Origin: Nitrospirales bacterium
GTDB taxonomy: Bacteria; Nitrospirota; Nitrospiria; Nitrospirales; UBA8639
Direction: 5' to 3'
NCBI GenBank assembly: GCA_963555755.3
Contig: OY820905.2
Coordinates: forward strand, 3,488,001-3,552,000
Length of the DNA: 64,000 nt
Shown: piece by piece, positions 14,633 through 41,294 of the stretch
Numbering within the stretch: the first letter of the stretch is position 1
Layout: every line of letters starts with the position of its first letter
Program-made: the position numbers and the translations under genes
Notes under the pieces: model-generated
Database searches by the model: none
What the model saw: the letters and a program-made list of their open reading frames with translations, nothing else
What the model was told of the DNA's origin: nothing

Positions 14633-14657
14633 GGGCTCGTGGTAGGGGTATCTCCCC

Positions 14658-15247: not shown

Positions 15248-15636
15248 TCAAGAAACGGTTTGATGCAGGCAGAGGGAACAATCAAGACTAAAAATGAACA
15301 ATTCGATCACTTCCAAATTTAGGCCCATGATAATTCCTGCATCTGCCTCTGAGCAGAAAGAATTATCCTTCTTTACGGAATTGAAAGTACCAATAAAATC
15401 GAGCCCATGCCAATCAACTTGGCAGGATTTATTCAACCATGATACGCTAACCTCATGGTAATCAGATTCGATTGAACACGCCTGTCATTTCTGCCAGGAC
15501 AACAAGATCTCAAACTCAAAAACATCCCTTGAATTCCCTTCAGCCTCAAACCAAAATACCCATTCCCCAAAGGGTGCAAGAATAGAGGGACCTGTTTGTT
15601 TCGATACCCTTGTGACACTATGGTGTTGGAACACAC

Positions 15637-18758: not shown

Positions 18759-18856
18759 ATTAGATAGAAAAACAAAAAAATCCCTAAGAGGTCTGTTGAA
18801 TATTTCAGGTCAAGGACCCAAAGATGCTCCAGGAAAGACGGCTCACATCAGTGGGA

Positions 18857-19098
18857 GGGAATGTTCAAAAAAGCATGCCCTGAGTCTTTCCGAAGGGTCC
18901 GTCCAGCAAGGCCGCAACTCTTCCCGGCCTTCGTAGCTCACTTCGGCGGAGTAGGCTTGACGCGCGGAGCGTACTCTCAGTACGTGAGCACGACAAAAGG
19001 GCGACCTGCCTGCGCGAAGCCGCTCCGGCAGGCAAGGAACGCTCTGGCTTGTCAGCCGTAGCTTTACCGAAGGCTGGCGGCTTTTTTCAACATTCCCC
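18857..19098. repeat. MITE-like element, family B copy 2
   Basis: GGGAATGTTCAAAAA...TTTTTCAACATTCCC with the shared core. Confidence 0.8.
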
Positions 19099-22816: not shown

Positions 22817-22944
22817 CTTATCACATTAATTCTTGCTTCCACACGGAGCCCATGCCTGTTCTGGGAAAGTTAAAACGGGCCGGTTGAACATTTCACTCCA
22901 ACAGCCAATAAAAGCTCCAGATGAGCCACGCATTGTCAGTGGGA

Positions 22945-23066
22945 GGGAATGTTCAAAAAAGTTCGTCCAGCAAGGCCGCAGCCGTTTTGACGAGCGGAGC
23001 GTACTCATAGTACGTGAGCACGGCAAAAGGGGGAGAACGCCGCTGGCGGCTTTTTTCAACATTCCC
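22945..23066. repeat. MITE-like element, family B copy 3
   Basis: GGGAATGTTCAAAAAA...TTTTTTCAACATTCCC with the shared core. Confidence 0.85.
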
Positions 23067-23143
23067 AAAACGGAATCTGAAAAACGATGCAAAAAACCCA
23101 AGGACAGGTCAGACTCAAAGATACGGCTGTACAGAGAAGGAAG

Positions 23144-23860
23144 TTAGACAATATCCGAAGACAATGGTTCTTCTTCGGCAGAGGTATGAGAGGAAAGCCC
23201 AGTCGAAGGCAGTTCTTTGGGATGGATCAGGGTCAAGCAATCTTCCGCCACAGGGTCTTTGTGGAACAGGGCATAGATTGGAAATATTTTAGACGCATGG
23301 CCTCCCTGCTGAGAAGGCAATAACACTGGGACTTCTACCCACGGTGAGGGTGTATCCAAACTTGCCAAGCGAAGGCGAACGGCTAACAGCATATCTCGGA
23401 TTCGGGTCTCTCCCTCAGGAGTCCCAACTTCCGATGAATCGGCGATACTCCGACTCCACAAAGACTTGGTGATGCCAACGGCCAAATTAAATCCTACACC
23501 TTTGGCCTTCTTGCTCACATCGATAAGCAGACCTGCATCAATCGCTTCCTGGCGAGACGTAATGTGACGAGAAGGCTCCTGTGCCTCGGATGCTGGGATC
23601 ACCGTCTGTTCTTCCGATGATGCGCCAAGATTTAAGGTTTCTTCGAAAAGCCCCTCCGCCCCCACCGGGATCTCGATTGAATCAACATCCGTTTCAACTG
23701 GCTCGAAGGAATCAACGGTTAAGCCTCTCGCATGCAACACTCCGTCATACACGGCCCGGGCCGACTTGGACCAAGACGAATGAAAGGGCCTTCCTTGGTA
23801 CGCCGCTTCCGCCGCTTTTTTCTCATCATGGCTCAAGGCACGTGGTAGTTTCATATCCAT
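23144..23860 (-). CDS. hypothetical protein, C-terminal DUF6573-like domain
   Basis: SRQEAIDAGLLIDVS...GF...VGITKSLW...RIRDML...LTLIHPKE. Confidence 0.6.
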   Translation of the reverse strand: MDMKLPRALSHDEKKAAEAAYQGRPFHSSWSKSARAVYDGVLHARGLTVDSFEPVETDVDSIEIPVGAEGLFEETLNLGASSEEQTVIPASEAQEPSRHITSRQEAIDAGLLIDVSKKAKGVGFNLAVGITKSLWSRSIADSSEVGTPEGETRIRDMLLAVRLRLASLDTPSPWVEVPVLLPSQQGGHASKIFPIYALFHKDPVAEDCLTLIHPKELPSTGLSSHTSAEEEPLSSDIV

Positions 23861-24035: not shown

Positions 24036-25544
24036 TTACGGAATGAGGCCTGGGGAAGATTGGGCAAATTGTACTCCACCCACCTGGTTCACCAAATGCG
24101 TGACACTGGCATCCATCATTTCCATCAATGGACCAGGATACAGGCCAATCCACAGCACGAGGACGGCTAAGGGAATGACCGTTGCTAATTCACGATAGCT
24201 TAAGTCAGGGAGAAGCGAGGCGGCTTTTGTATTGGGCTCACCCAGGGCCACTCGTTGCAACATCCAAAGCATATAGGCCGCAGCCAAGACGATGCCCACC
24301 ATCGCGAGTAACACCATCACAAAACTTTTGAAGGAGGTACCGATGAGTACCAAGAATTCACCGATAAAATTACACGTACCCGGCAGGCCAAATGACGCAA
24401 TGGAGAAAAGACAAAACAACGTCACAAACCGAGGCATGGTTTTGTGAAGGCCGCCATAGGCACTGATGTCGCGATTGTGTGTCCGGTCATACAACTGACC
24501 GACTGCCAAAAATAGGGCTCCTGTTGTAATACCATGATTAAACATCTGAAGAATCGCGCCCTGAATGCCCTGGCTATTGAAGACAAAAATTCCAAGCGTC
24601 ACAAATCCCATATGGGAAATCGAAGAATAGGCGACCAGCTTTTTAAGATCCGACTGTGCCAAGGCCATGTACCCGCCGTAGATGATAGCCGCGATCGACA
24701 ACCATAAAATAAACGGCGCAAATTGTGCTGAAGCCTCTGGAAACATAGGCAGGCAAAATCGCAAAAACCCATACCCGCCCATTTTCAACAACACTCCAGC
24801 GAGAAGAACACTTCCCGCGGTTGGGGCTTCCGCATGGGCATCAGGCAACCACGTATGGAAAGGCAGCATGGGTATCTTGATGGCAAAGGCTAAAAAGAAC
24901 GCTAAGAAAATCCAAAACTGTACATCCGATGAATAGGTGTGATTGGTGAGGGCCACAATATCAAAAGTGCGGCCCCCTTCGAGATACAGACCTAAAATCC
25001 CCACGAGTAACAACAAGCTACCCGTGAGGCTGTACAGAACAAACTTGATGCCTGCGGCAATCCGGTCGGGTCCTCCCCACAGGATAATCATGAAATACAT
25101 GGGAATCATGGTGATTTCCCACAGCATGAAGAAGAGGAAAAGATCCAGTGCGGTAAAGACCACAATCATGGCGCCTTCAACTAGAAGGATCAGCATCATG
25201 AAGGCTCTGACCCTCGTGGTGATGGACGTCCAAGAGCAGAGGACACAAAGCGGACAGAGAAGAGCCGTTAACAAAACCAGCAGGATGCTAATTCCATCGA
25301 CACCCACGGCATACTGAATGTTGAAGGTGGGCATCCACTGCATACGCTCAACGAACTGCATGCTATGCTGTCCGAAATCAAAACCAGACCAGAGCATGAG
25401 GGACAGCCCAAAATTTAGCAGGGTAGCAGCGAGCGCCGTTCGACGAATCCACTCTTGATTTTGAACGAATGCCAGAGCGGCAATTCCAAGAACAGGAATG
25501 GCAATCATCCAACTAAGAATGTGATCGGCAAAGATAAAGCTCAT
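24036..25544 (-). CDS. NuoM-like antiporter subunit
   Basis: GVDGIS, FFMLWE, AIKIPMLPFHTWLPDAHAEAPT, LLKMGGYG, AYSSISHMG, NFIGE. Confidence 0.92.
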   Translation of the reverse strand: MSFIFADHILSWMIAIPVLGIAALAFVQNQEWIRRTALAATLLNFGLSLMLWSGFDFGQHSMQFVERMQWMPTFNIQYAVGVDGISILLVLLTALLCPLCVLCSWTSITTRVRAFMMLILLVEGAMIVVFTALDLFLFFMLWEITMIPMYFMIILWGGPDRIAAGIKFVLYSLTGSLLLLVGILGLYLEGGRTFDIVALTNHTYSSDVQFWIFLAFFLAFAIKIPMLPFHTWLPDAHAEAPTAGSVLLAGVLLKMGGYGFLRFCLPMFPEASAQFAPFILWLSIAAIIYGGYMALAQSDLKKLVAYSSISHMGFVTLGIFVFNSQGIQGAILQMFNHGITTGALFLAVGQLYDRTHNRDISAYGGLHKTMPRFVTLFCLFSIASFGLPGTCNFIGEFLVLIGTSFKSFVMVLLAMVGIVLAAAYMLWMLQRVALGEPNTKAASLLPDLSYRELATVIPLAVLVLWIGLYPGPLMEMMDASVTHLVNQVGGVQFAQSSPGLIP

Positions 25545-25585
25545 GGGATCCCCTTCTCCCTACACAAGTTCCAATAGGGTTCTCA

Positions 25586-27760
25586 TTACACAAGCCAATA
25601 GAAAAGCCCTATAGCTGCCACTAACCAAAAAATCATGACCAATAAATGGTGCTGAAGCGTCCGTGGTTCGATTCTCTGCAAAAGATGACCTGTTGCATCG
25701 GCCTCCCGTCCCAACCGTTCGACATTCTTTTCAATCCCGCGAATATCGATAACCTGCCAGAGCCACTGAGCCAGGTTCACGGTTTGACCACCAATCCCAA
25801 CTACCCTTCGATCAATGCCTTTGACATCCACTACTTGCCACAGCCAACGAGCGAGGCTCACGGTTTGACGCCCAATCCCAACCACCCCGCGATCTATTCC
25901 TCTGACATCTACAACCTGCCACAGCCATCTGGCCAACGTAACCGATACCCCAGCAATACCACTAATGAAGCGATCAATACCTCCAAGATCAACAGTCCGC
26001 CATAACCATGTGGACAATCGAAGTGTGGGTTGAATCACATAGACTTCGTAGATCTCATCAAAATACAATTTATTCAAAAAAAGTACATACAAAGTTTTTC
26101 CCCATTCCGACTGTGCCAGGAATGATGGTCGGGGTTTGATATGAAGGAAGTAGGCAAAACCCCATCCGCAAAATGCCACGACAAGCGGTAACATGATCCA
26201 CAAAGAGATTCCCCCAAACGTGGTCTGTTCATTGAGGAGTGGAACAGGCTGCCCCAATGCCGGTGCCAGGAATTGAACAAACCACCCCCACAACACCATG
26301 AGAACGCTCACCAACATCACGCCCGCAACGAAAAGTCCTACGAGGTGTGAAGGCGAAAACAACTGGGGCTGGACGACAAACGATTTCCCACCTTCCACAT
26401 CTCTGACTGAGGGTCCGCCCTGAAAGAATAAGAGGATTCCCCGAAAGAGATACATCGCCGTAAAAAAGACAGTGGCTAAGCCCATCACCCAAAAGACAGT
26501 TTTGGCTGAAGCAAAATTATGCACGGTCCACAAATATTCATAAGGCCCTGAAAAGATCACGAAAGGAGGAATGCAGGCTAACACCAGTGCGCCAACAGAC
26601 AAAGACCATGCTGGCCTCGAGGTCGGCCCATGGCCAACATCAGACTGAGGATGGCCGTGGGCTTGAACCGACCGTAGGGCGTTCCCTGTAGACAGGAATA
26701 AAAATGCTTTCAAACATCCATGAGCTAACACATGAAACGTCGCGGCCACAAACGCCCCAATGCCGCAGGTCATGATCATGAACCCAATTTGACTGATCGT
26801 GGAGTAAGCGAGAATCTTTTTAATATCGGTCTGCGTCAGTGAGACAATCGCCGCGAACAGAGCCGTCACCGCACCGACAACCGCGATGACGGTCATAGCC
26901 AGTGGCGAGAAAACAATCAACGGACTTAAACGAATGAGAAGGAAGGGCCCCGCATTCACCATGGTTGCCGCATGGATCAGCGCTGAGACAGGGGTGGGCG
27001 CTTCCATGGCAAACGGCAACCATACATGGAAAGGAAGTTGCGCGGACTTTCCCATTGCACCCATCAACAATAAAAGGGAAATCACTGTCAGGGTGTGAAC
27101 TGAGTATTCAAGCCCTATCCATCCCAACAGATTCATCGTATGCCCACGCATGCTGTCCGCCTGAATCAAAATTTGTTGAATGTCGAGAGTCCCAAATGTG
27201 GCAAAGGTCAGGATGATTCCGAACCCGAGTCCAACATCCGCAACGGCGTTGACTAAAAACGCTTTCGTGGCGGCCTGGCATGCTGATTGTCTTTGAGCAT
27301 AATGGGAGATCAAGAGATAGGAACAGATCCCCATGATCTCCCAACAGATAAACAACATGAGCAGGTTGCTACTCATCACCAACATCACCATGGAAAAGGT
27401 AAACAACGCGATGACCGCGAAGAAACGATTGTAACGGGGATCCCCGATCATGTATCGGGAAGAGTAGATGTGAACGATGCTGCTGACCCCTGTGACCAAC
27501 ATCAACAAGAGGACGGTGAGTTGGTCGATATACAGACCAAGGTCGACGACGAGATTTCCGGACTGAATGAAGCGGTAGAGAGGAACTGATATGGCTCCGT
27601 TCCTTACAACCTCAATGAATGCGCCTACCGACAATCCGAAGGATACACCTATCGCAGGAATCGCAACTTTGTGGCTTTTCTCTCCCACCCACCGCCCGCC
27701 CAACGCGAGAGTAAGAAACGCCACCAAAGGAAGAAGCGGGATCAGAACGTAAACTGACAT
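25586..27760 (-). CDS. NuoL/MrpA/DabB-like antiporter subunit with repeat-extended C-terminal helix
   Basis: WEIMGICSYLLI, KSAQLPFHVWLP.AMEAPTPVSALIHAATMV, KKILAYSTISQIG, HGCLKAFLFL. Confidence 0.92.
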   Translation of the reverse strand: MSVYVLIPLLPLVAFLTLALGGRWVGEKSHKVAIPAIGVSFGLSVGAFIEVVRNGAISVPLYRFIQSGNLVVDLGLYIDQLTVLLLMLVTGVSSIVHIYSSRYMIGDPRYNRFFAVIALFTFSMVMLVMSSNLLMLFICWEIMGICSYLLISHYAQRQSACQAATKAFLVNAVADVGLGFGIILTFATFGTLDIQQILIQADSMRGHTMNLLGWIGLEYSVHTLTVISLLLLMGAMGKSAQLPFHVWLPFAMEAPTPVSALIHAATMVNAGPFLLIRLSPLIVFSPLAMTVIAVVGAVTALFAAIVSLTQTDIKKILAYSTISQIGFMIMTCGIGAFVAATFHVLAHGCLKAFLFLSTGNALRSVQAHGHPQSDVGHGPTSRPAWSLSVGALVLACIPPFVIFSGPYEYLWTVHNFASAKTVFWVMGLATVFFTAMYLFRGILLFFQGGPSVRDVEGGKSFVVQPQLFSPSHLVGLFVAGVMLVSVLMVLWGWFVQFLAPALGQPVPLLNEQTTFGGISLWIMLPLVVAFCGWGFAYFLHIKPRPSFLAQSEWGKTLYVLFLNKLYFDEIYEVYVIQPTLRLSTWLWRTVDLGGIDRFISGIAGVSVTLARWLWQVVDVRGIDRGVVGIGRQTVSLARWLWQVVDVKGIDRRVVGIGGQTVNLAQWLWQVIDIRGIEKNVERLGREADATGHLLQRIEPRTLQHHLLVMIFWLVAAIGLFYWLV
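25685..26008 (-). repeat. 4 x 81-bp (27-aa) tandem repeat inside the NuoL-like gene
   Basis: WLW codons begin at 26008, 25927, 25846 and 25765, an exact 81-bp period. Confidence 0.95.
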
Positions 27761-27862
27761 AGGCTATCTAAAGAATGAACGATTATGAAATTGTTGAACA
27801 ATTCATTTTTCTGACATCAACTGTGCTATCTGATCGATTAAGATAGATTGCCAAGTAGGAAT

Positions 27863-27985
27863 GGGGAATGTTCAAAAAGGTTGTCCAGCAAGGCCGCAGG
27901 GCCTTTGGCGCGCGCAGCGTACACGGAGTACGTGAGCACGACAAAGGCTCGAGAACGCAGCTGGCGGCCTTTTTCAACATTCCCC
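27863..27985. repeat. MITE-like element, family B copy 4 (inside the operon)
   Basis: GGGGAATGTTCAAAAAGG...CCTTTTTCAACATTCCCC. Confidence 0.85.
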
Positions 27986-27991
27986 TTAAGA

Positions 27992-29461
27992 TTACAGCCC
28001 CGCGGGCAGAGCTGAATCAAGCAAAAACCCTACAATGGGATCACTGAACAACCCTAAAAGGATGATCGCGGCTGACACAACACCTATACTCACTTTCATA
28101 GATAATGGCGCCTCAACAGAAATGATCCCTGAAGATGGTTGAGTATCACGAAAAATACGTTCAAAGAGCTTAATGAAATAGGCCAACGTCAAAACAGTAG
28201 AGATGATCACCGCCGCAACCGCGAGATAATTCTGGGCTTCAAGAGCGCCAAGGATGATATACCATTTGCCAAAAAATCCACCGGTTGGGGGAAATCCAAC
28301 CATCGACATGGCCATGATGATGAGCGCACCCGTCATCCATGGCGCTTGTCCTCGCAAACGGCCCAAATCCTCGATGGTCCGAACGCCATACTGATACATC
28401 GCGGCACCTGCCAGGAAAAAGAGGGCGGCCTGCATAACCGCATCATTGATTAAATAAAACACCCCTCCTGCAAAACCCGTCGGATTTCCAATACCGACCC
28501 CGATGAGGATCAACCCAATATGAGAAATCCCACCATAGGCGAACATTCGTTTAACTTCATGTTGTGTCAATGCCAGAAATGCCCCAACCACTGCGGCAAG
28601 GGCCCCCAACTCCACCAGAAGGAACAGGACTGGAACATGTTCAATTTCCGCATTCGCACCCACCACCCAAAACATGATCCGGATCCAGGCGAGTAAGGCC
28701 ACTTTGGTGACCAAAGAAGCGAGGAAAGGTGAAATGGCGTCCGGTGCATGAGTATAGGCATCAGGCAACCACCCATGAAGTGGCATGAGTGCCATCTTAA
28801 TTCCGAGGCCGAGGAACATGAAAATCAACCCTCCAACGATGGCTTTGGAAGTTAATAATTCAGGCACTCGCTGAGCCAAGTCCGCCATGTTGAGCGTTCC
28901 CGTCGCCGCATAAAAGTAGCCCACCCCTAATAAATACAAGGAGGCCCCAAGCGTGCCCAAAATGAGATATCGAAAGGCGGAGACGAGAGCTTTCCCACCT
29001 GCAACTCCTACCAGGGCATACCCGGATAACGCGGCAACTTCCAGGAACACAAACACGTTAAATAAATCCCCAGCGAAGACGATCCCTGTAACCGCTGCAA
29101 TCAACAAAAGGATCAAGGTGTAGTAGGGCACAATCCGTTGTCCAAGCGCAGAAGACGATGTCGGACCTGCATTGATCAAGGAAATCAATGCCAATAGGCT
29201 GAGGGTCACCATGATGACACTCGCCAGCCCATCATCGACCCATTCAATGCCAATGGGAGGCGCCCAGCCGCTGAAGGCATAACGAATTTCTCCTGAATCC
29301 ATGACGACGACAATATTGGCAATCGATGCGACACTCATGGCAGAGACAGCCGCTATTGCCATCGGTTGACACCACTCACGATGTTTCAATCCGACCATGG
29401 GCAAAGAGATGGCTGTCAAGAAGGGAAGCAGGAAGAGGAGCGCGGGAAGGTGATGACTCAT
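27992..29461 (-). CDS. mrpD: Mrp antiporter subunit D-like
   Basis: GWAPPIGIE, GDLFNVFVFLE, TGTLNMADL, IKMALMPLHGWLPDAY, PPTGGFFGKW. Confidence 0.88.
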   Translation of the reverse strand: MSHHLPALLFLLPFLTAISLPMVGLKHREWCQPMAIAAVSAMSVASIANIVVVMDSGEIRYAFSGWAPPIGIEWVDDGLASVIMVTLSLLALISLINAGPTSSSALGQRIVPYYTLILLLIAAVTGIVFAGDLFNVFVFLEVAALSGYALVGVAGGKALVSAFRYLILGTLGASLYLLGVGYFYAATGTLNMADLAQRVPELLTSKAIVGGLIFMFLGLGIKMALMPLHGWLPDAYTHAPDAISPFLASLVTKVALLAWIRIMFWVVGANAEIEHVPVLFLLVELGALAAVVGAFLALTQHEVKRMFAYGGISHIGLILIGVGIGNPTGFAGGVFYLINDAVMQAALFFLAGAAMYQYGVRTIEDLGRLRGQAPWMTGALIIMAMSMVGFPPTGGFFGKWYIILGALEAQNYLAVAAVIISTVLTLAYFIKLFERIFRDTQPSSGIISVEAPLSMKVSIGVVSAAIILLGLFSDPIVGFLLDSALPAGL

Positions 29462-29835
29462 TCCAATCTCTTCAAAATTTCATCTTCATCCAAGGTGCCA
29501 TATTTCCGATAAATCGCCGCGACCAAGGCCAAAGAGACGCCCAAGGTCGCGACCTGGACCACGATCGCCGTTAACGTCAAGACATGCGGTAATGGATTGG
29601 TATAGGTGGCAGCTTGGACTGGGCCTGTTCCGGACAACAGAATAGGAACCGTGGCTCCTGTTTTCGCACTGATTGCCACGAGAAAAAAAATCACGCTGGT
29701 CTGCACGATGTACATGCCAATGAGCTTTTTGACAAGGTTATGGTGGGTCACCATGATGTAGAAGCCCCAGAGAAACAGGATCACGAAGGCAATAAAGTTT
29801 GACCGGTGAAGCCACGTCTCAATGAGTTCAAGCAT
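29458..29835 (-). CDS. mrpC: Mrp antiporter subunit C-like
   Basis: NLVKKLIG, NPLPHVLTLTAIVV, YGTLDEDEI; ATG 29835 overlaps the upstream stop. Confidence 0.88.
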   Translation of the reverse strand: MLELIETWLHRSNFIAFVILFLWGFYIMVTHHNLVKKLIGMYIVQTSVIFFLVAISAKTGATVPILLSGTGPVQAATYTNPLPHVLTLTAIVVQVATLGVSLALVAAIYRKYGTLDEDEILKRLE

Positions 29836-30277
29836 GTGAGTCCTCGTCGTTGTCGTTGGACGACAAACTAAACACAATAGAGATAACCGTCACGGCGACA
29901 TCGACCGCTACACCAATTTGTGTCAGCATGATGCCCACATAACGGCGTGAAGCGACCTCGAGGCCGTAGATTTCGAGGGCGGCGTAATTCAAAAACTCCC
30001 CTCCCCCGATCAGACACAACCCACCGACCCCAGCAAATATCAGCAAACCAAGCCCATCACCATGCACCACCTTCTGCGCCACATTGCTATACGAAGCGTG
30101 AGGACCAAAAATGAGGATCGATAAAATCATACTCGTGCCAAAAATCACCCCACCCACAAATCCTCCCCCGGGGCCATACTGTCCAAAGAACAGCACATAC
30201 AATCCATACAATTGCATTAAGGGAATCAAGAGTCGTCCTAACATGAGAACAATGACACTATCGTGCGCTTGGATCAT
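29828..30277 (-). CDS. mrpB: Mrp antiporter subunit B-like (MnhB domain)
   Basis: GQYGPGGGFVGG motif; 4 TM. Confidence 0.85.
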   Translation of the reverse strand: MIQAHDSVIVLMLGRLLIPLMQLYGLYVLFFGQYGPGGGFVGGVIFGTSMILSILIFGPHASYSNVAQKVVHGDGLGLLIFAGVGGLCLIGGGEFLNYAALEIYGLEVASRRYVGIMLTQIGVAVDVAVTVISIVFSLSSNDNDEDSHA

Positions 30278-30804
30278 GCCTTGTTTCTCCTGAGCAACAA
30301 GGCACAGGCAATCCCGGCTGTAAAAATCACAACGGTCTCAAGCAACGTATCGAAAGCGCGGTAGTCCATAAGAACCGAGGTCACGACATTGGGGGTAAGG
30401 GTATCGTGCATACTGTTTTCCAAGTACACGGGAGAAATATGAACGCTTGCAGGAGAGGCAGGATCTCCAAATTTGGGAAGATCCTCGGCCGCATACAAGA
30501 GGAGAAAGCCAAGCAGAGGCAATCCGATCAACGCGGCCCAGGGAGGGGGCGGACGATGAAGGCGAGTATCCTTTGGAGCTGTCTCAAATAGCGTCAAGAG
30601 AAAAAACACCGTCCCCAAGCCCGCGCCCACGACTGCTTCAACAAACGCCACATCTACAGCTCCAATCCATGCCCACACCAACGCTAAAAAGAAACTGTAG
30701 GACCCCAAAATAAACACCGCTGGCACCAAGTCTTTGACCAGAATGGCTCCACCCGCTGTCAGAATCAGGAGAATCAGTAGAGGAATTTCAAATGAAAACG
30801 TCAT
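30274..30804 (-). CDS. DUF4040 / MrpB N-terminal-like subunit
   Basis: AVDVAFVEAVVGAG; PNVVTSVLMDYRAFDTLLE. Confidence 0.85.
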   Translation of the reverse strand: MTFSFEIPLLILLILTAGGAILVKDLVPAVFILGSYSFFLALVWAWIGAVDVAFVEAVVGAGLGTVFFLLTLFETAPKDTRLHRPPPPWAALIGLPLLGFLLLYAAEDLPKFGDPASPASVHISPVYLENSMHDTLTPNVVTSVLMDYRAFDTLLETVVIFTAGIACALLLRRNKA

Positions 30805-31100
30805 GGTTGTTCTCGCCCCCAAGGTTTGAGGCCAGAGCGAAGCGCCGCGCGAATGGTGGCATGTGAAACGACAGGATTCAATAGATACAGAAGAGCCAGA
30901 ACCACGAGAATTTTGAGCAGGTTCAAGCTGAATCCTTGGTAAATGGCCAACCCTGCCAATACCAGAAACGCACCCAAGGAGTCAGTCAGTGAGAGGGCAT
31001 GTGAGCGGGTAAACACATCTGGCAAACGCAGCATGCCAATGGCCGCGACGATCAGAAAAAACAATCCTGCGAGAATAAAAACGATGGCAATCAGAGACAT
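30801..31100 (-). CDS. mrpG: Mrp antiporter subunit G-like
   Basis: GMLRLPDVFTRSHA..D, NPVVSHA. Confidence 0.88.
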   Translation of the reverse strand: MSLIAIVFILAGLFFLIVAAIGMLRLPDVFTRSHALSLTDSLGAFLVLAGLAIYQGFSLNLLKILVVLALLYLLNPVVSHATIRAALRSGLKPWGREQP

Positions 31101-31367
31101 TTACGCCCTTCCTCGCTGTTCAAGAAATTTGGCAATGGCCAAGGCACCCACGAGATTGAGCAAGGCATATCCCGTGGAGATATCCACGAACATGTCCACC
31201 CGCCCATATACGGTCCCGATCACCACCAGCAAAATAATGGCTTTCGTCGAGATGCCATTGAGGCCCAACACTTGGTCAAACACTGTGGGGCCTTGGACCA
31301 CACGGTACAAATACGCCAAAATTAAGATCACAAGGACGATCAACACGAACAGAAAAAAGAATTTCAT
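31101..31367 (-). CDS. mrpF: Mrp antiporter subunit F-like
   Basis: RVVQGPTVFD, VDISTGYALLN, AKFL. Confidence 0.88.
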   Translation of the reverse strand: MKFFFLFVLIVLVILILAYLYRVVQGPTVFDQVLGLNGISTKAIILLVVIGTVYGRVDMFVDISTGYALLNLVGALAIAKFLEQRGRA

Positions 31368-31861
31368 GCTGAACCCTCTTGCTGCCGAAACACCTTGGCA
31401 ATTTTTTGTTCGAGCCGTTGACTGGTCAAATCATCGCCAGATGCATCATCCATCGCATGGACGATGAGTTCCTGAGCATTCACTTCAGCCGTGATCGTGC
31501 CAGGAGTCAGCGTAATGGAATTTCCTAGAAGAACGATGGCGGCTTGGCCCTGCAACTTGGTTCGGTAGTGAATAAGCTTCGGATCAATGGGAAGAGCAGG
31601 ATGAAGAATGAGGGCAGTCAGATGAAGACTGCTGAGCACAATGCGCCCAAAGAGCCACGGGAAATACCCCAAAATTCGCAACAGGGGTAAGTTTCGGAAA
31701 GGAGAGTCTGCGTGGCCTGAATTCAGCCAAGCCACGCCAAAAGACACCACGAGCCCGAGGCCCATATGAAACGGGTTATATTTTCCTGACAAAATGAGCC
31801 AAATGACAAAAAAAACCAAACTCTTCAAGATGAGTGTTTTATAGAGGCTAGAGTTCATCAT
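31364..31861 (-). CDS. mrpE: Mrp antiporter subunit E-like
   Basis: WLILSG, NSITLTPGT, VHAM. Confidence 0.88.
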   Translation of the reverse strand: MMNSSLYKTLILKSLVFFVIWLILSGKYNPFHMGLGLVVSFGVAWLNSGHADSPFRNLPLLRILGYFPWLFGRIVLSSLHLTALILHPALPIDPKLIHYRTKLQGQAAIVLLGNSITLTPGTITAEVNAQELIVHAMDDASGDDLTSQRLEQKIAKVFRQQEGSA

Positions 31862-31882
31862 GTTTCTGGGTCTATGAAAATC

Positions 31883-34800
31883 CTACCCACCCGCGGTCAA
31901 CGCCATGTGTTCCCAAGTTGCATCAGGGTTATATCGATGAATCTCAAAGGTGTTGGGGTCCAGTGCAATAAGATTAAGCCATTGGTTATGGAAAAGCTGC
32001 TGAAGGATCGCGTGTTTTTGAACGATGGACGAGATGACACTCGGCATCGCTTCAATGATAGCCAGCAGCCGAACCGGTTCGTGGTAATGAACATCACCGT
32101 TGTTGACGGTCTGTAGGGGAAAGCCCATTTGTAAATCGCTTTGGCTTCCCAACATCATCCCAACACCACCCACCACATTGTGCAGAACCTTACTCCCACT
32201 GCCATAGACCCATGGGTCAACCGCCGAGAAATAATAGCCCAGATTAATCCACTCTCCGACAATCAAGGGCGCTGTCATAATTTTTTCGAGGATGGCGCCT
32301 TGGGGATCGGCAATTGGATCATAGGAATGTAAAAAGACACGGCCGCCCAAATTCAAGCCTTTGGTCAGCTTTCGTCTTCCAATTAAAAAGGCGGCATTTC
32401 CTGCCAGTCCCCATTCCGGACGAGGGTTGGCCCAATCGCAGCTACGTTCCTCCACATGAGCAAAGGCCTTTTCTGGAGAAATCTCTGTCGGAGCGTTTGG
32501 GATGCGACGGCACCGTTCCAGAGCCTGATTGGCTCCGGCTTCTTCGAGATCCTTGCGCAACACCTGTAAATCCTCTCTATGAGTTTCGGGAAATACTTCC
32601 AGGTCGTAAAACGTGACCCGATCAGTGGTGGTATTGTGCTTGCCCGGAAGAAACCAGGTGTCATCAGGAATGGGTAATCCCTTCTCTTTGAGGATGCGAC
32701 GAACTTCCGGCTCGTTGGCCATTGCGGCAAAGACGCGTGCGTTCGGATCCCCTGGAGCTCCACCGCACGCGCCACAATCCAATGCTCCAAAATAGGGATT
32801 GTTGTCGGTCTCACTGCCATGCCCACACAGGCAAACTAACCGACCATAATTTTGTGTGAGCCCCATCGCACGCAGTCCGTTTTCTATGAACGTGGCCCGT
32901 TCCGTCAGAGAGAAACCCTGTGAGAGCCCAACAGGAATCCCTTCAGCATTCACATCTCCTACTTTTGGGTGTTGAGGATCGGATGGTGCTGACACCGAAA
33001 TCTGTGTCGGCACCGTATGGGTAAACCAACCCCCGATGGTCGATGTGATTGCGTGAAATGGTTTTTGGAGCAGCGTTTTGCCAACCAGACCTAAACTAAA
33101 AAAGACCCCCAGCACATCAATCACCATCATCGAGCCAATCGGGTTATGCTTTAGATCGTGGAACAGATGATGACCGAGCTGATGCCAGCGCGTGCCAGAA
33201 GAATATTTTTGCAATGCCCGTTCTTCTCCCAGCCGAGGCACTTCTGTGACCGCATGGTTGGGTGAAAGTAACACAGGGCATAAGGCTAAACGTTGGTCAC
33301 TATCAAAGGCTTGATGACTGATTGGAATGCCAAAAAATCCGGCGAACCCTAAGGTTTCATAGGGGCCTTGGGCTTCAATATGGCGGCGAAATGATTCGGA
33401 TCGCACATCAATACAAAACACGAGTTGCGCCCGCGGGCGCATTTCTAAGGCCGGAACAGTCCCTCGATGCGCAGAAATTTTTTGAAGGATCTCCCCGCGA
33501 AAACCCTCTTCATACGCCTCGAGCCACACTGGGCCATGGCGATCTGCGGGAAAACCTTCCAGCCAACTCAACAAGGTCTGGGCATCCGAGAAGGAGAGGT
33601 CGTGCAGCTCTATTGGAGACAGCTCAAGAAACTGTGCAAGGTGAAACAACCGCCAGGCATCCCGGCAAATAGCCTGTGTCCGGGGATCAACAGCATGAGC
33701 GCTTTCCCTCACTTGGTTCTCATATTCATCCGGTCGATCCTGCCAAAAGGCGATCAACGCGGAAGCGGTTCCATCAATCCCCCACTCTCGCTGACAGATG
33801 ATTTGGGCCAGTTCCAGTTCATAGAACAGGCGAACGGCTAGATACTGTGTGGTGTCAATGGGGTGCTTGTGTTGCGCATGATACGCTGGATTTTCCCCAA
33901 GCCATCGAATGTACCGCGTCCAACCCGGCAATAATGATAACTGCCTTGACAGATAATCTTTCCATTGTTCTTGTGGGATTCCAAGACGATGCAAACTGGC
34001 TACGACTGCATCTTCAGGTTCGTTTGGAAGATCGTGGATTTTTTGTGAGAAATCTTTTATCCCAAGAAATGTTCCTGAATGATCTTGTTGAACCAATTCT
34101 CGCCAAGCCTGATAAAAGCCTTCGTGTCGTAAGGGCATTTCCCATCCGGCTAACCCTTCATCAAGAAAGGCCGCCACCCATTTGATGAGTTGACCGTTGA
34201 TTGACTCGACCAATGTTGTTCCGGCCAACACATCCACCCAATCGCTGAGCGTTCGCTGAGCTGGAAGCGAAATATTCAATTGAGCGTGAGGGTCATCTGA
34301 AACGCCAGAGAGGGAACTCCTCGATGTTGGATCGCTGGAATGGGCATCAGATAGTTGCAGGACGGCCAAAGTGCTCTTCCACAAATTTGTGAGATAGGCC
34401 TCCTCAGGATAATCTCGACAATGCTCACATTCTCTGATCGTTCGTTCGATGATTCGTTGCCGAGATTCATCTGAAAGGTCTTGACGAAAACGCTTGGTGG
34501 CCCTACCCCCACTGAGTTCCCATTGCAGGAGGGTTGTCTCACAAGGTTCAAACCCATGGACGAGGTGCAATGCCCAAATATCAAGGGCCGTCACCCGGCG
34601 GCTTCCTATTTGGACAGAATCTTGTTTTTCTGGTCGAGGTCCAACTCTCGCGAAAGCACGCTTGAGGCTTTCGGGGGTAATGCGACCATCTCGATAGAAC
34701 TGCCGATACTCTTCATTTGGCAGATACCCATTTCCGCCTACCAGGCGTTTGCCTTTTCGAACCGCCTGGTCAAACGGAAGATATTCCAATCCATGAATAG

Positions 34801-34924
34801 GATTCTGGGCGACCATCGTTCTCATAGGCCAAAACGGAGCAATCGGTTCGCTCGCCTGTTCAACAGTCTGTCGTACCTGATCGCGCTCTTCTTGGGAAAT
34901 CGTATTTGTGGAAGTGATGCTCAT
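31883..34924 (-). CDS. dabA: inorganic carbon transporter subunit DabA/MpsB (DUF2309)
   Basis: IAPFWP...NP, FCIDVRSE, GFAGFFG, CGHGS, LDCGACGG, HNTTTD, RPEWGLAGNA, GSGSKVLHNV, HEPVRL. Start placed at ATG 34924, downstream of the leader terminator. Confidence 0.95.
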   Translation of the reverse strand: MSITSTNTISQEERDQVRQTVEQASEPIAPFWPMRTMVAQNPIHGLEYLPFDQAVRKGKRLVGGNGYLPNEEYRQFYRDGRITPESLKRAFARVGPRPEKQDSVQIGSRRVTALDIWALHLVHGFEPCETTLLQWELSGGRATKRFRQDLSDESRQRIIERTIRECEHCRDYPEEAYLTNLWKSTLAVLQLSDAHSSDPTSRSSLSGVSDDPHAQLNISLPAQRTLSDWVDVLAGTTLVESINGQLIKWVAAFLDEGLAGWEMPLRHEGFYQAWRELVQQDHSGTFLGIKDFSQKIHDLPNEPEDAVVASLHRLGIPQEQWKDYLSRQLSLLPGWTRYIRWLGENPAYHAQHKHPIDTTQYLAVRLFYELELAQIICQREWGIDGTASALIAFWQDRPDEYENQVRESAHAVDPRTQAICRDAWRLFHLAQFLELSPIELHDLSFSDAQTLLSWLEGFPADRHGPVWLEAYEEGFRGEILQKISAHRGTVPALEMRPRAQLVFCIDVRSESFRRHIEAQGPYETLGFAGFFGIPISHQAFDSDQRLALCPVLLSPNHAVTEVPRLGEERALQKYSSGTRWHQLGHHLFHDLKHNPIGSMMVIDVLGVFFSLGLVGKTLLQKPFHAITSTIGGWFTHTVPTQISVSAPSDPQHPKVGDVNAEGIPVGLSQGFSLTERATFIENGLRAMGLTQNYGRLVCLCGHGSETDNNPYFGALDCGACGGAPGDPNARVFAAMANEPEVRRILKEKGLPIPDDTWFLPGKHNTTTDRVTFYDLEVFPETHREDLQVLRKDLEEAGANQALERCRRIPNAPTEISPEKAFAHVEERSCDWANPRPEWGLAGNAAFLIGRRKLTKGLNLGGRVFLHSYDPIADPQGAILEKIMTAPLIVGEWINLGYYFSAVDPWVYGSGSKVLHNVVGGVGMMLGSQSDLQMGFPLQTVNNGDVHYHEPVRLLAIIEAMPSVISSIVQKHAILQQLFHNQWLNLIALDPNTFEIHRYNPDATWEHMALTAGG

Positions 34925-34956
34925 GAATCGTCGTGTACGGAACAATGATTGAACAT

Positions 34957-35055
34957 AAAAAAAGCCAACCGCTTTTACCTCCTGTTCAGAGGACCACGGT
35001 TGGCTTGCACTGTGGCTGACCGTATTCACCTAGCGAGTCAACCACCCCACAGCCT
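34957..35055 (-). promoter_or_regulatory. candidate cis-regulatory RNA (hairpin + AGUGCAA + intrinsic terminator) in the dabA leader
   Basis: Minus strand GCUGUG-GGGUGG-UUGAC..GUCAG-C-CAC-AGUGCAA-GCCAACCG...CGGUUGGC-U7; same architecture at 38120-38218. Confidence 0.75.
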
Positions 35056-35220
35056 ATGTTGAAAGGTTAGGCTCAATCCTAGAATTCCTGCCACCCTCAG
35101 CTGAAACCCGTGAAGGAAGCAGGGGCCTATCCTTGACCTCTCAAAAATCAATAGCTTATATCATCTTTTTTAGCAAGGACTCTTGGTCGGAACAAGAGAT
35201 TTTTAGTCAGCAGGAGACTA

Positions 35221-35628
35221 TTGCCCATGGGTTATGGACAAAGCAAAGGCGAGGCGGAGACAGCCATCCGCAATGCCATCATTAAATTCGAACAAGAATT
35301 TATGGGACGCGGGCCAACGGACGTCAAAGCCTTCATCCTTCGTGACATGGTCTTGGTGAGACTGAAAGGGGTGTTAACTCCAGCGGAACGCCAACTTGCC
35401 AAGAATCCCGAAGGTGTTGAAATGGTCAAACAGATGCGACAAAACTTGATCTCACAAGGGCGAGAAAAACTCTGTAGCCAAATTTCCGCTATTACCGGGA
35501 CCGAGGTCACAGGATTATTTACCGATATCGAGACCCAAATCGGTGAACGCGTGATGGTCTTTACCCTCGAAAACGACCTTGACGCGACCTTCCGCGAGCC
35601 CTCAACTTTTTCAAAAACTTCACAGTAG
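35221..35628 (+). CDS. DUF2294 (MpsC/YbcI-like) protein
   Basis: SKGEAE..I..AIIKFEQEFMGRGP..VK...DMVLVRLKGVLTPAE..L, LFTDI....GERVMVFTL. Confidence 0.9.
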   Translation: MPMGYGQSKGEAETAIRNAIIKFEQEFMGRGPTDVKAFILRDMVLVRLKGVLTPAERQLAKNPEGVEMVKQMRQNLISQGREKLCSQISAITGTEVTGLFTDIETQIGERVMVFTLENDLDATFREPSTFSKTSQ

Positions 35629-36417: not shown

Positions 36418-38082
36418 TTATGAATCGTGAAGGTCCTTTTGCCAGAGTTTTGGCTTCTTATGAGCAGCGACGATAGAATCAGCAATGGGTTGATGCTCTG
36501 CTAACCCCCGAACCAATAATTCACAATCTTTTTCCTCGAATTCTATAATCCATTCATAGAGCTTGGACATCACGGTGTGATCGACTAATCGAGTGTCGGC
36601 GAAATTCAGCCTGACGTTTTTTCCTTCTTCCAGGTAGCGATGAAGATACTTGCGCAACGGGATCCAGGTGCTAAAAACAGCTGAATCTTTCACATAGATG
36701 GTCACGGTGTTGTCATCTGATTCGACAACCTCAACGTTCAATTTGAAAAACGAGGAAACCGGGGCTCCATTGATGAGATGAATAACCACTTTCACTCCGA
36801 TCCCAATAGCAATGCCTTTCAGAAGATCAGTTGCGAGGACTCCCACGATCGTAGACATAAAAACAATGAACTGGTCTTTTCCCAAATGATACATGTGGAC
36901 AAATTCTTGGGGTGACGCCAATCGAAAACCCGTAAAGACTAACAATGCGCCCAAAGCCGCCAACGGGATTTGATTGATCAGCCCGGGGATTAAAGCCACA
37001 AACACCAATAGAAAAAGCCCATGATACATATTGGCAAACCGCGTCCTCGCTCCATTGTCGATATTCGCCTTACTTCGAATAATCTCTGAAATCATCGGCA
37101 ATCCACCAACCAAGGCCGCCAGCGTATTGCCGACACCCACCGCAAGCAAATCTTGATCCATATTTGTCTTTCGTCCCCAGGGATCAATACCATCAATCGC
37201 CTTCGCACTGAGCAACGACTCCAGGCTCCCGATTAACGCAAACATGATCACGTACTTTATGCCGATCGAAGTCGTGAGCCCCGAAAAATCGGGAAGGGTC
37301 AGAGCACTGAACATGTTTTTCGGAACATTCACCAAGAACTGTGTTCCTAAGACATATGTCTGATCATGAAAGGCATACGTTCCTTCCTGTCCTACACCCA
37401 AAAATAGCCCCAGAGGAACGGCGACGAACAACACGATCATCGGCGCCGGCACGATTTTCAATTTTTGATTTTTGATGAAGGTATACCCAAACATGATCAG
37501 TATGCTCACAATTCCAATTAAGCCAATTTTTGGATTCATCTCCATCACAAATGTTGGGAAGTTGGCTAAGAGGTCTAATGGTGTCCCTTCAGAACTAAGC
37601 CCCATCATGATCGGAAACTGCTTGGCGATAATGATGACCCCAATGGCTGCCAACAATCCATGAATCGCCGTCGTTGGGAAAAACTCTCCCAGGATCCCTG
37701 CCCGGAACACCCCAAGGAAAATTTGAAGAACACCAGCGGCGACCCCAACGCCCAGAGCCAACCGGTACGCTTGGTAATCCGCTGCCGGATCCTTTCCTCC
37801 TGTAAAACCAAATTCAGTGACGCAGCCAATCGCGATGACAATGAGCCCCGCAGCTGGGCCTTTAATCGTGAGTTCGGAATTACTGAAGAACGTGGCTAAG
37901 AGACCACCGATGATGGCAGTAAAAATTCCAGAAATGGCTGGATACCCACAGGCTAAAGAAATGCCGAGGCACAGGGGAAGGGCAATGAGAAACACCAGAA
38001 ACCCAGACAGAAGATCTTCCGGGAAATGCGCTCGCAGCCCTGCGAGATTTCCTTTTGGTATGGATGCAGTGTTTGATTGCAT
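36418..38082 (-). CDS. SulP/SLC26 family anion (probably bicarbonate) transporter with STAS-like tail
   Basis: DLLSGFLVFLIALPLCLGISLACG, IKGPAAGL, ESLLSAKA, GGLPMISEIIRS..N; start at ATG 38082, after the leader terminator. Confidence 0.92.
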   Translation of the reverse strand: MQSNTASIPKGNLAGLRAHFPEDLLSGFLVFLIALPLCLGISLACGYPAISGIFTAIIGGLLATFFSNSELTIKGPAAGLIVIAIGCVTEFGFTGGKDPAADYQAYRLALGVGVAAGVLQIFLGVFRAGILGEFFPTTAIHGLLAAIGVIIIAKQFPIMMGLSSEGTPLDLLANFPTFVMEMNPKIGLIGIVSILIMFGYTFIKNQKLKIVPAPMIVLFVAVPLGLFLGVGQEGTYAFHDQTYVLGTQFLVNVPKNMFSALTLPDFSGLTTSIGIKYVIMFALIGSLESLLSAKAIDGIDPWGRKTNMDQDLLAVGVGNTLAALVGGLPMISEIIRSKANIDNGARTRFANMYHGLFLLVFVALIPGLINQIPLAALGALLVFTGFRLASPQEFVHMYHLGKDQFIVFMSTIVGVLATDLLKGIAIGIGVKVVIHLINGAPVSSFFKLNVEVVESDDNTVTIYVKDSAVFSTWIPLRKYLHRYLEEGKNVRLNFADTRLVDHTVMSKLYEWIIEFEEKDCELLVRGLAEHQPIADSIVAAHKKPKLWQKDLHDS

Positions 38083-38119
38083 TAAAATGGACTTTCTTAA
38101 TCCCTCAACACACTGGCAC

Positions 38120-38218
38120 AAAAAACCAGTCAGAATTCAGGGAGACCCTCCACGAATCCTCAACTGGCTTGCACTGTACCTGGGCTTAAACATCTGAAAC
38201 CCAGCTACCCTACCTACC
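38120..38218 (-). promoter_or_regulatory. candidate cis-regulatory RNA in the sulP leader (same motif as dabA leader)
   Basis: Minus strand GUA-GGGUAG-CUGGGUUU..AAGCCCAG-G-UAC-AGUGCAA-GCCAGUU...GACUGGU-U5. Confidence 0.75.
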
Positions 38219-38350
38219 GATGTATAAAGTGGGACCACAACCATGACATCCCACCATTTGCCTGTCTTCTGTTCAAAAGAATTTTAGCTTGAGCACCCAA
38301 ATGGAGCAACTAGTTTTTTTTGTTGGGGGATCGAGTAAAAGGCATCACAG

Positions 38351-38615: not shown

Positions 38616-39230
38616 TCACTCCAGCGGGACTTCAAGGACGAGTCCGCCCATCACATCATTCAATTTGAAATCACGTTTGGTAGATTCGGTATGCGCATTA
38701 TGGCAAGAGACGCAGGCACGGCTGACAGCGCGATCTGGGTAGATCGCTTTAAAATACGGTTTGTTGTTGACCATAATCTCTTCCTCAACCACTTCCCCAA
38801 ATTTCACGACCTGGTCTAACATCTCACGCTCATGGTCCGAGGCCGGAGTATTTCGTGAATTGAGGGGCCAAGGACTGATCAGGCGATAGCGAAAGGGCGC
38901 ATCCCGGACATGAAGACTGCGAGAGGCCTCGCGCAAAAACTGAACGGGCAGAGGCAGGGTCTTTTCTTTCACCCAATTTTCAGAGGCCGTCACAATAAGC
39001 ATGGCTTCCATCCGCTCAACAATATGTTGCGTATAAAATGTCCGATCCGCTTCAATAACGGCATGAAGATAATCTGCTGCCGTACGAGCAGGAATAAAGT
39101 TAGCTGGAGGGATCTGAGATCGGATGCCCCATCCTAAACCCATTCCCACTATTAGCATGAGAACCGAGAGGCCTATCAGTCGGACATTCATGCTTATTCC
39201 ATCACCTTTCTTCTCATCTACTGGAATCAT
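38616..39230 (-). CDS. DUF3365 (Tll0287-like) c-type heme protein
   Basis: TM/signal segment, DRTFYT, PLP, YRLIS..PLN, ACVSCHN, FKLNDVMGG. Confidence 0.85.
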   Translation of the reverse strand: MIPVDEKKGDGISMNVRLIGLSVLMLIVGMGLGWGIRSQIPPANFIPARTAADYLHAVIEADRTFYTQHIVERMEAMLIVTASENWVKEKTLPLPVQFLREASRSLHVRDAPFRYRLISPWPLNSRNTPASDHEREMLDQVVKFGEVVEEEIMVNNKPYFKAIYPDRAVSRACVSCHNAHTESTKRDFKLNDVMGGLVLEVPLE

Positions 39231-39364
39231 ACGAAACGGATTTTACTAAAAGACTGAATCAAGGGCCTATCATACCTGAACACAATCTTCCCCACCAGAG
39301 GAAACGGGAGCGGTTGTGTTTGACACTCAGGGAGGGCAACCTTAGGATACGGTCCAGGCTAACC

Positions 39365-41293: not shown

Positions 41294-41294
41294 C

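Follow-up and report, generated by a model that had tools for sequence, protein, structure and literature searches.

The closest described systems to the locus analyzed here are the DAB vectorial carbonic anhydrases, the Mrp antiporters and the membrane arm of complex I. In DAB1, an elbow of DabA wedges against transmembrane helix (TM) 11 and DabC aligns with NuoM; its authors place the elbow outside the proton path (PMC13684180). In DAB2, Glu444 in a finger motif of DabA takes the place of NuoL K399/D400, and DabB has neither the long lateral helix nor E144 (10.64898/2026.03.13.711513). Mrp operons of group 3 are distinguished by an irregular gene order and duplicated subunits (PMC5703873). 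MrpA is braced to MrpD by a lateral helix, and complex I has the same points of coupling (Steiner and Sazanov, PMC7419157); D678, D771, D776 and E780 are sites on the Na+ exit route of MrpA (PMC9568556). We analyzed a stretch of 64,000 nucleotides from a Nitrospirales bacterium (GCA_963555755.3, contig OY820905.2, positions 3,488,001 to 3,552,000), hereafter the window, in which a dabA gene is followed by a set of mrp genes and by genes for a NuoL-like and a NuoM subunit. At the level of sequence, this cluster is a real, conserved and chimeric system, DAB-like at one end and Mrp-like at the other, which fails defining features of each.

The order on the minus strand is dabA-mrpE-F-G-DUF4040-B-C-D-nuoL-nuoM (Table 1), and all ten open reading frames run in the same direction; open reading frame positions and family profiles thus agree with the initial annotation, which had been made from the DNA letters alone. 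Spacing is 21 bp between dabA and mrpE, then -4, 0, -4, -4, -8 and -4 bp from mrpE to mrpD, 231 bp between mrpD and nuoL and 41 bp between nuoL and nuoM. The tight packing described earlier therefore holds from mrpE to mrpD but not at the mrpD-nuoL junction, where the 231-bp gap is filled by a 126-bp palindromic repeat present at about 298 places in the window's genome. Among 50 related loci the corresponding spacing never exceeds 29 bp, and nuoL overlaps or abuts mrpD, so we take the gap to be a strain-level insertion. The same repeat also occurs at ~22830-23100 and ~18850-18950 of the window. Searches of the window with proteins from the genome's two complex I regions returned only L/M/N-family members and short stretches that resemble repeats, so a redox subunit is not encoded there; neither in the window nor among the conserved neighbors was a NuoH-type subunit, NuoB/C/D/I or a NiFe subunit found. 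The window's genome (99% complete) has a single dabA and a single mrpEFG/DUF4040/B/C set, and a separate dabB is absent. Its two complex I regions, with the orders L-M-N and L-M-M-N, lie elsewhere.

The Mrp part had been called near-complete. Instead, it is a complete group 3 module: A (C-terminal), B, C, D, E, F and G are all present in irregular order, and a split MrpA C-terminus together with three antiporter subunits is the normal group 3 layout. Eleven of 24 weaker DUF4040 matches were fetched, and all are stand-alone group 3 Mrp operons (E-F-G-B'-B-C followed by two or three D) from genomes without a PF10070 match. In a FastTree phylogeny of 78 antiporter-like proteins, the cluster MrpD groups with the first D subunit of these stand-alone operons (support 99), the cluster NuoM groups with the NuoM of the genome's own complex I (94), to which it is 57% identical, and the cluster NuoL falls within the NuoL/DabB clade (100). 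The NCBIfam cut-offs for complex I are exceeded by both the NuoL-like and the NuoM-like protein, which places them nearer to NuoL and NuoM than to MrpA or MrpD. These placements describe a group 3 Mrp in which the two distal subunits have been replaced by a complex-I-type L-M pair and to which dabA has been added. By its sequences, then, the cluster is a chimera of a group 3 Mrp module, a complex-I-derived NuoL/NuoM pair and dabA.

The charged residues of these membrane subunits are well conserved. The equivalents of NuoM E144, K234, K265 and E407 are kept in 80/80 proteins and the MrpD Glu/Lys set in 117/117. DUF4040 aligns with residues 648-795 of MrpA in 7qru; the solved Mrp structures (6z16, 7qru, 7d3u) belong to groups other than group 3. 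Five acidic residues are present in 109/109 copies and cover the D678, D771, D776 and E780 sites. The positions of E687 and of MrpF D38 are non-acidic both in the cluster and in stand-alone group 3 copies; the asparagine of the window's MrpF is also found in most of the latter. In stand-alone loci L161-L165 and L170-L175, a third D subunit has asparagine at the TM7 lysine position (9/9 copies).

DabA retains the catalytic site of a beta-carbonic anhydrase. The Zn ligands noted at the outset, C504, H702 and C717, are invariant in 80/80 orthologues, as is the D506-R508 dyad. The membrane elbow spans residues ~590-618; within it and beyond, D603, W831 and L840 are present in all 80 and D716 in 68 of them (the 80 exclude one partial cluster DabA, which had been sorted into the short class). 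D603 occupies the position of DAB2 Glu444 and is aspartate throughout. In a structure comparison of the DabA model, beta-carbonic anhydrase folds ranked at the top with weak scores (Z 8.7); Foldseek with the same model gave no match at E 0.001.

The NuoL-like subunit, a PF00361 protein, combines features of DabB and of canonical NuoL. The proton-entry lysine of TM12 (Lys399) is missing from all 50 cluster proteins, whereas 10/10 NuoL proteins of complex I have it, as do all three D subunits of stand-alone Mrp copies; Asp400 is also gone. H254, H334, H338 and K342 are retained in 46-50 of the 50, and the protein in the window keeps E141, H263, H343/H347/K351, the lateral helix and TM16 while having no TM12 Lys/Asp. 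Glu144 (E141 here), which couples to the neighboring subunit, is found in 50/50 cluster proteins versus 0/7 full and 0/4 partial classical DabB sequences, and the long lateral helix and TM16 set the cluster protein apart from every classical DabB examined. With 724 residues, these two elements and seven genes between it and dabA, it falls outside the short-DabB class. A mixture-model tree of 22 rows that included TM12-13 places the NuoL-like clade as sister to all DabB (95/96). The AlphaFold monomer (predicted local distance difference test, pLDDT, 70.5; repeats below 50) best matches complex I NuoL (Z 44, root-mean-square deviation 6.6, 471 aligned residues); since DabB2 is absent among the 50 matches listed, this comparison does not discriminate between DabB-like and NuoL-like TM12-13.

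A complex prediction for DabA 440-1008 with NuoL-like 76-500 scored 0.77, compared with 0.00 for the best of three controls, with contact agreement between runs of at least 78% and partner pLDDT of at least 80. The mark applied is reached by 116 of 157 solved pairs and 2 of 215 mismatched pairs, and is only roughly applicable here. In the predicted complex, D603 rests on H343 and DabA 590-618 runs along TM11. We consider it very likely on this model that DabA binds the NuoL-like subunit. This subunit likely doubles as DabB and as the N-terminal part of MrpA, as indicated by its residues and by the modelled interface. The retained Glu144, lateral helix and TM16 suggest coupling with NuoM and MrpD.

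Conservation of the gene order elsewhere had been set beforehand as the test of a larger assembly, and the order holds in forward and reverse searches. The counts include kin and are not independent. Among 69 genome loci found with DabA, 49 have all nine membrane genes, 11 continue from mrpE until the locus ends, eight are too short and one (L054) has none, so that mrpE lies downstream of dabA in 60 of 61 informative loci. In the reverse direction, 80 metagenome loci found with MrpD show dabA upstream in 40, 39 are too short and one has 452 bp without dabA (40/41 informative). Twenty of the regions found with the NuoL-like subunit, a set that overlaps the DabA-seeded genomes in part and is not independent of them, comprise 18 full clusters, one that is cut and one (G365) with nuoL-like and nuoM alone (18/19 informative).

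By record title, carriers belong to Nitrospirota, Nitrospinota, Acidobacteriota, Myxococcota, Gammaproteobacteria and one Deltaproteobacteria bin. Among 301 Nitrospirota genomes, cluster-type DUF4040 occurs in the window's genome and 17 others, in 16 of which it lies within ~14 kb of dabA; in G120, the only dabA is 262 kb from the mrp-L-M block and no other DabB candidate was found. The distribution is patchy, with cluster-type DUF4040 in 16/24 genomes of the window's family versus 1/50 of the sister family, and cluster-type NuoL is present in 32/81 Nitrospinota genomes. Outside the nitrite oxidizers it is thin: 1/301 Acidobacteriota (the centre genome) and 3/300 Gammaproteobacteria (the centre genome included; one is the unpublished G744, and G953 was not scored). 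Behind dabA genes close to that of the window, some loci carry a divergent mrp-L-M clade with a single helix module (L001 13025-18814; L034, L039, L044-L046 and L053). This arrangement suggests module exchange.

In the window's genome, a previously undescribed RNA leader of about 120 nucleotides precedes dabA and sulP, which encodes a SulP-family anion transporter, and nothing else. The consensus of 38 copies consists of a bulged hairpin followed by a hairpin resembling an intrinsic terminator; 94% of cells are paired, and 11 of 19 pairs show compensatory change, above shuffled and slid controls. The 5' part is predicted to fold so as to sequester the 5' strand of the terminator, as in an attenuator. 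The leader also stands ahead of mrpE in many loci and on both separated pieces in G120; copies occur in Nitrospirales and Nitrospinota (L003, L032, L166, L167 and others). A search of 62 sources did not find it in any of 10 stand-alone Mrp loci, upstream of classical dabB in seven loci, or in loci outside the two nitrite-oxidizer phyla. A known riboswitch was rejected, as there is no Rfam match at the gathering threshold or at E up to 10. The models of the Na+-I and Li+ riboswitches (DUF1646, nhaA-I, nhaA-II) gave no match either, and the leader is unlike the kefB construct of PMC9337991 (compare PMC9646797). A strictly carbon-specific role was not upheld: in G096 a copy stands directly before a degP-like gene, and a further, weak copy lies ahead of an unrelated gene. 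The shared leader suggests that dabA, mrpE and sulP are co-regulated, not that their products bind; MpsC/DUF2294, encoded by the gene divergent from dabA, is a candidate regulator.

The initial annotation had proposed a larger hybrid complex. Synteny, residue patterns and the predicted DabA-NuoL-like interface support this proposal, and from them we infer the ten-subunit assembly and its coupling ion. Judging from sequence, models and analogy with the parent systems, the ten genes probably build one redox-free membrane complex. With somewhat less assurance, we favor a reading in which a vectorial carbonic anhydrase stands in place of the Mrp proton-entry site, CO2 hydration and Na+ translocation form a single, obligatorily coupled cycle, and the complex is a living intermediate between the NuoL-NuoM pair and DabB-DabC. 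The sequences of DabA and the NuoL-like subunit would account for the first step: DabA has a full active site and an acidic elbow with D603, and the NuoL-like subunit is without the TM12 Lys/Asp that this residue replaces in DAB2. The elbow is predicted to wedge against TM11 with D603 on H343. By analogy with complex I and Mrp structures, DabA would sit at the tip of a NuoL-NuoM-MrpD arm, with the lateral helix and TM16 strapping NuoM and MrpD, and with MrpC, DUF4040, B, F, G and E closing the arm. A proton entering at D603/TM11 would open the substrate channels of DabA as in DAB, and a charge relay from E141/K238 through NuoM E396 and MrpD K399 would reach the Na+ site as in Mrp. The output would be HCO3- in the cytoplasm together with a gradient of Na+ on which the co-regulated SulP may draw for HCO3- symport, an arrangement that would suit seawater pH and salinity. 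The direction of the ions is the more tentative part, and we put forward as a plausible working model, by analogy, that protons flowing inward gate CO2 hydration and also power the export of Na+. This model is the simplest because both parents bring protons in through the L-type subunit, so that no reversal is needed.

Several observations weigh against one coupled machine or against its Na+ chemistry. Three polar residues kept by stand-alone group 3 Mrp are replaced in most copies from the cluster: in MrpB, His by Phe in 98/109 and Glu by Gln in 102/109; in MrpG, Lys by Leu, Val, Ile or Met in 106/106. Na+ transport may therefore differ or be lost, and DAB2 of H. neapolitanus failed to rescue a Na+-transporter mutant (10.64898/2026.03.13.711513). 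At the interface, the H328/R331 contact motif of DabB is not kept, the equivalent of its DabA partner E704 is absent (as in DAB2), and R175 is lost in 50/50 NuoL-like proteins. The sister grouping with DabB loses its resolution when TM12-13 and the trait columns are taken out of the alignment (quick tree, 25 rows), and FastTree does not resolve it either. The score of the complex prediction may stem from resemblance to solved DAB structures, and the control set was without canonical NuoL. Gene content is not uniform: G365 holds the nuoL-like/nuoM pair, and no cluster-type mrpD or dabA was found there; G325 carries a dabA of the cluster type with a frameshift and lacks a nuoL of that type. Reading the G325 frameshift as decay after loss of the module was rejected, as one break is likewise seen in three loci whose module is intact or of unknown state. 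Several carrier genomes also hold classical DAB1. Lastly, dabA can be separated by inserted genes and mrpE often has a leader of its own, so that dabA and the mrp block are separable units.

These observations bear unequally on the alternatives. If DabA with the NuoL-like subunit were an ordinary DAB, with NuoM as a structural, DabC-like partner, Mrp could be an antiporter of its own or a scaffold, the two machines being co-regulated or loosely coupled. The separate leader of mrpE and the L-M pair kept without mrp in G365 fit such a division, as do the alignment of DabC of DAB1, which is non-transporting, with NuoM (PMC13684180) and the interpretation by Daebeler et al. of a similar block as a group 3 Mrp feeding BicA (PMC7784846). 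Yet MrpD and the small subunits would then be left without an MrpA-type partner, for which the NuoL-like protein is the sole candidate in the window's genome; nuoL overlaps or abuts mrpD in the 50 related loci, and selection maintains the lateral helix, TM16, E144 and every NuoM charge. We regard this division as unlikely. A reversed mode of the same ten-subunit complex is about as unlikely in our estimate: Na+ inflow through Mrp would expel the proton that CO2 hydration sets free, so that the sodium gradient would drive a net electroneutral accumulation of NaHCO3, and the complex would be a redox-free analogue of cyanobacterial NDH-1MS. It would use the same intact relay residues, and Na+ in/H+ out could work at seawater pH without a membrane potential; MpsAB has been proposed to be Na+-coupled (PMC6689103), and carriers are, by record title, biased towards marine lineages and Nitrospinota and, within the window's family, show the enrichment over the sister family given above. 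Against it, both characterized parents take protons in, and sequence is silent on direction.

Other readings reduce the part played by DabA. As a CO2/HCO3- gate on a Na+/H+ antiporter, it would let inorganic carbon switch a system whose main output is homeostasis of pH and Na+ and not net carbon uptake. The missing proton-entry lysine of the antiporter could then be supplied only by the DabA elbow; a second pump would be redundant in the carriers that also have DAB1, and the Acidobacteriota and Myxococcota carrier bins are not known as autotrophs. Since the catalytic site is fully conserved, and the cluster is the only DAB system of the window's genome with a leader common to sulP, we hold a pure gate to be improbable. 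Partner-less dabA genes in two Nitrospira species (PMC13147460), together with the unlinked dabA of G120, would suit a soluble carbonic anhydrase that merely neighbors an unusual Mrp operon, but the hydrophobic elbow with D603, W831 and L840 is invariant, Lys399 is missing from the NuoL-like subunit in 50/50, and other DabA proteins are inactive without a membrane subunit (PMC13147460); a free-standing enzyme is therefore very hard to sustain.

Under the preferred reading of a single coupled complex, the long lateral helix of the NuoL-like subunit raises the question of stoichiometry. The distance from the helix motif to the C-terminus is 73 residues in E. coli, 76 in the 1M NuoL and 108 in the 2M NuoL of the window's genome, and 158 in the NuoL-like protein. 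Chadwick et al. reportedly linked, in 2018, a lateral-helix insertion to the second NuoM of 2M complex I, and the lengths within this genome fit. Extra 27-residue modules number 0 in seven, 1 in seven, 2 in 51, 3 in 24, 4 in one and 5 in one of 91 complete cluster proteins (three further proteins without the motif were left out), giving totals of 1 to 6 in relatives with the same genes. One nuoM gene is present in every module class, and module number is therefore not a count of nuoM genes. The idea that one gene yields several NuoM copies is without support: the predicted Shine-Dalgarno sequence is stronger for nuoM than for nuoL in all repeat classes, including the class with zero extra modules (61 loci). 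Each module measures ~40 Å, and the genome's own 1M and 2M complexes have one for every NuoM; that the modules bring several NuoM subunits into a DabA-Mrp complex and so gear its ion stoichiometry is, in our judgment, improbable.

Table 1. Features of the DabA-Mrp-NuoL/M cluster and adjacent genes in the window (positions counted from the first nucleotide of the window).
Feature	Position	Strand	Evidence or remark
DUF6573-like gene after nuoM	23144..23860	-	trails nuoM in 20 related loci
NuoM orthologue	24036..25544	-	TIGR01972 625.9 (cut-off 263.8); E143/K223/K254/E396 intact
NuoL-like, 724 aa	25586..27760	-	TIGR01974 505.9 bits (cut-off 407.5)
Four 27-residue modules in the lateral helix of NuoL-like (ordinary NuoL: one)	25694..26017	-	
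Palindromic repeat, 126 bp, resembling a miniature inverted-repeat transposable element or repetitive extragenic palindrome, inserted between mrpD and nuoL	27860..27985		fold z -8.2; not part of the system
MrpD	27992..29461	-	E141/K222/K253/K399 intact; tree support 99
MrpC, NuoK-like	29458..29835	-	PF00420; NF005624 94.2 bits (cut-off 95)
MrpB	29828..30277	-	PF04039
DUF4040, split-off MrpA C-terminal domain (MbhD+MbhE-like)	30274..30804	-	NF009159 over cut-off
MrpG	30801..31100	-	PF03334; TIGR01300 over cut-off
MrpF, Asn37 at the Asp38 position	31101..31367	-	PF04066
MrpE	31364..31861	-	PF01899
DabA, 1013 aa, beta-carbonic anhydrase-like	31883..34924	-	PF10070 E 7e-267; PDB 9rd0_A E 4e-117
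RNA leader copy ahead of dabA	34956..35071	-	fold z -4.27
mpsC/DUF2294, divergent from dabA	35221..35628	+	PF10057 E 2.5e-37
SulP-family anion transporter (putative bicarbonate)	36418..38121	-	PF00916 E 1e-53; probable start ATG near 38082
Second RNA leader copy, ahead of sulP	38117..38234	-	covariance model R1 43.4 bits, E 7e-8 in genome

Around the cluster, sulP sits upstream of dabA in many related loci, and mpsC has the same position in many Nitrospirales loci. These two genes, the RNA leader and the 27-residue repeats were not part of the initial annotation. Further upstream of sulP (window 38616-42698) lie a Tll0287-like gene and a PAS histidine kinase/sigma-54 response regulator pair. 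Recurrent genes downstream of nuoM are limited to DUF6573 (20 loci), DUF2490 (6) and an OmpA-domain gene (4). The DUF6573-like gene remains in L054, where the mrp-L-M block is absent; DUF2490, an outer-membrane barrel family, follows nuoM in six metagenome loci (for example L099 13361-14143 and L110 9564-10307). In G365, CitMHS-family and PMT_2 genes precede the nuoL-like/nuoM pair in place of mrp and dabA (L211, G365:C16). Between dabA and mrpE, one lineage carries a gene for a DegP/HtrA-type protease (L044 13141-14682, L046, L048, L050, L057, L061, L054, L167 and L200), L009 has a gene for a 1226-residue DEAD-box helicase/nuclease (13091-16771), and a classical dabB-dabC-dabA (DAB1) operon is found at this site in L030, L065, L067 and L204 and nearby in L013, L020, L029 and L053. 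A scan of promoters and terminators gave counts near the shuffled means (10 versus 12.1; 25 versus 17.0). Contigs from RNA libraries (X1; X2 and X7, guessed to be RNA) contain scattered low-depth pieces of the cluster, including the nuoL-nuoM and mrpG-DUF4040 junctions, and are uninformative on transcription or an operon.

Two halves of the link between DabA and Mrp are already in print. Klimchuk et al. (2017) described 'Clade C' operons with ybcC (dabA) upstream of a nuoL homologue, together with sulP and nuoM, and suggested that more membrane subunits would move more ions (PMC5700660). Daebeler et al. (2020) described, in 'Ca. Nitrospira alkalitolerans', a group 3 mrp followed by nuoL/M-like genes near bicA (PMC7784846). 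In the text passages concerned, the former names no Mrp subunits, the latter no dabA, and neither proposes a DabA-Mrp complex; their neighborhood figures (Fig. S1, Fig. S8) may show more. A full-text search, mostly of non-subscription papers and including passages of 10.1101/476713 and PMC8115632, found no description of such a complex, and the connection itself was thus not found in the literature searched. Databases label the cluster subunits as complex I NuoL or as ordinary Mrp.

How marine Nitrospirales and Nitrospinota are supplied with inorganic carbon is an open question (PMC13147460); these organisms are carbon fixers of the dark ocean that depend on a very poor electron donor. In the window's genome, the RuBisCO large subunit is absent and there is no beta-carbonic anhydrase match; an alpha-carbonic anhydrase is present. 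If the proposal is correct, the cluster would be a third way to energize a vectorial carbonic anhydrase. It would test the lateral charge relay of the complex I/Mrp family directly and free of redox chemistry, give a handle on the dispute over H+ versus Na+ in DAB/MpsAB, and offer a candidate ancestor state of DabB and DabC.

Compared with DAB1 (DabA-DabB-DabC; Thermocrinis albus, PMC13684180) and DAB2/MpsAB (DabA-DabB; PDB 9rd0), the cluster has a DabA with the same five beta-carbonic anhydrase residues, GFFG lid, NNP..CGACGG and DW...RPEWGL motifs and acidic elbow. Its NuoL-family partner likewise has H254 and H334/H338/K342 and no TM12 lysine, and no redox module accompanies it. Unlike both, dabA comes first and does not adjoin its partner, seven Mrp subunits are added, and the partner has E144, the long lateral helix and TM16 and is without R175 and the H328/R331 motif. 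Unlike in DAB1, a full and fully charged NuoM replaces the half-size, uncharged DabC, and DabA is without the DAB1 flexible arm.

With group 3 Mrp (EFG-B'-B-C-D-D-D, 11 Nitrospirota genomes), the cluster shares the order of the small subunits, the first MrpD, the split MrpA C-terminus, the Na+-exit acids and three antiporter-like subunits. It differs in that NuoL and NuoM stand for the second and third MrpD, the TM12 proton-entry Lys/Glu of MrpA is missing, dabA is attached, and polar residues of MrpB and MrpG are changed. Like the membrane arm of complex I (NuoL-M-N-K-J), it passes the NuoL and NuoM cut-offs and presents the series L-M-(N-like MrpD)-(K-like MrpC) together with a lateral helix; unlike that arm, it has no NuoA/H or NuoB-I, its NuoL is without K399/D400 and R175, and its lateral helix carries 0-5 extra 27-residue modules. 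The catalytic subunit is unrelated to that of cyanobacterial NDH-1MS, which runs on ferredoxin oxidation whereas the cluster has no redox input; what the two would share is a CO2-hydrating soluble subunit seated on a NuoL-family protein at the distal end of an arm of several subunits, as CupA is on NdhF3 (PMC13684180).

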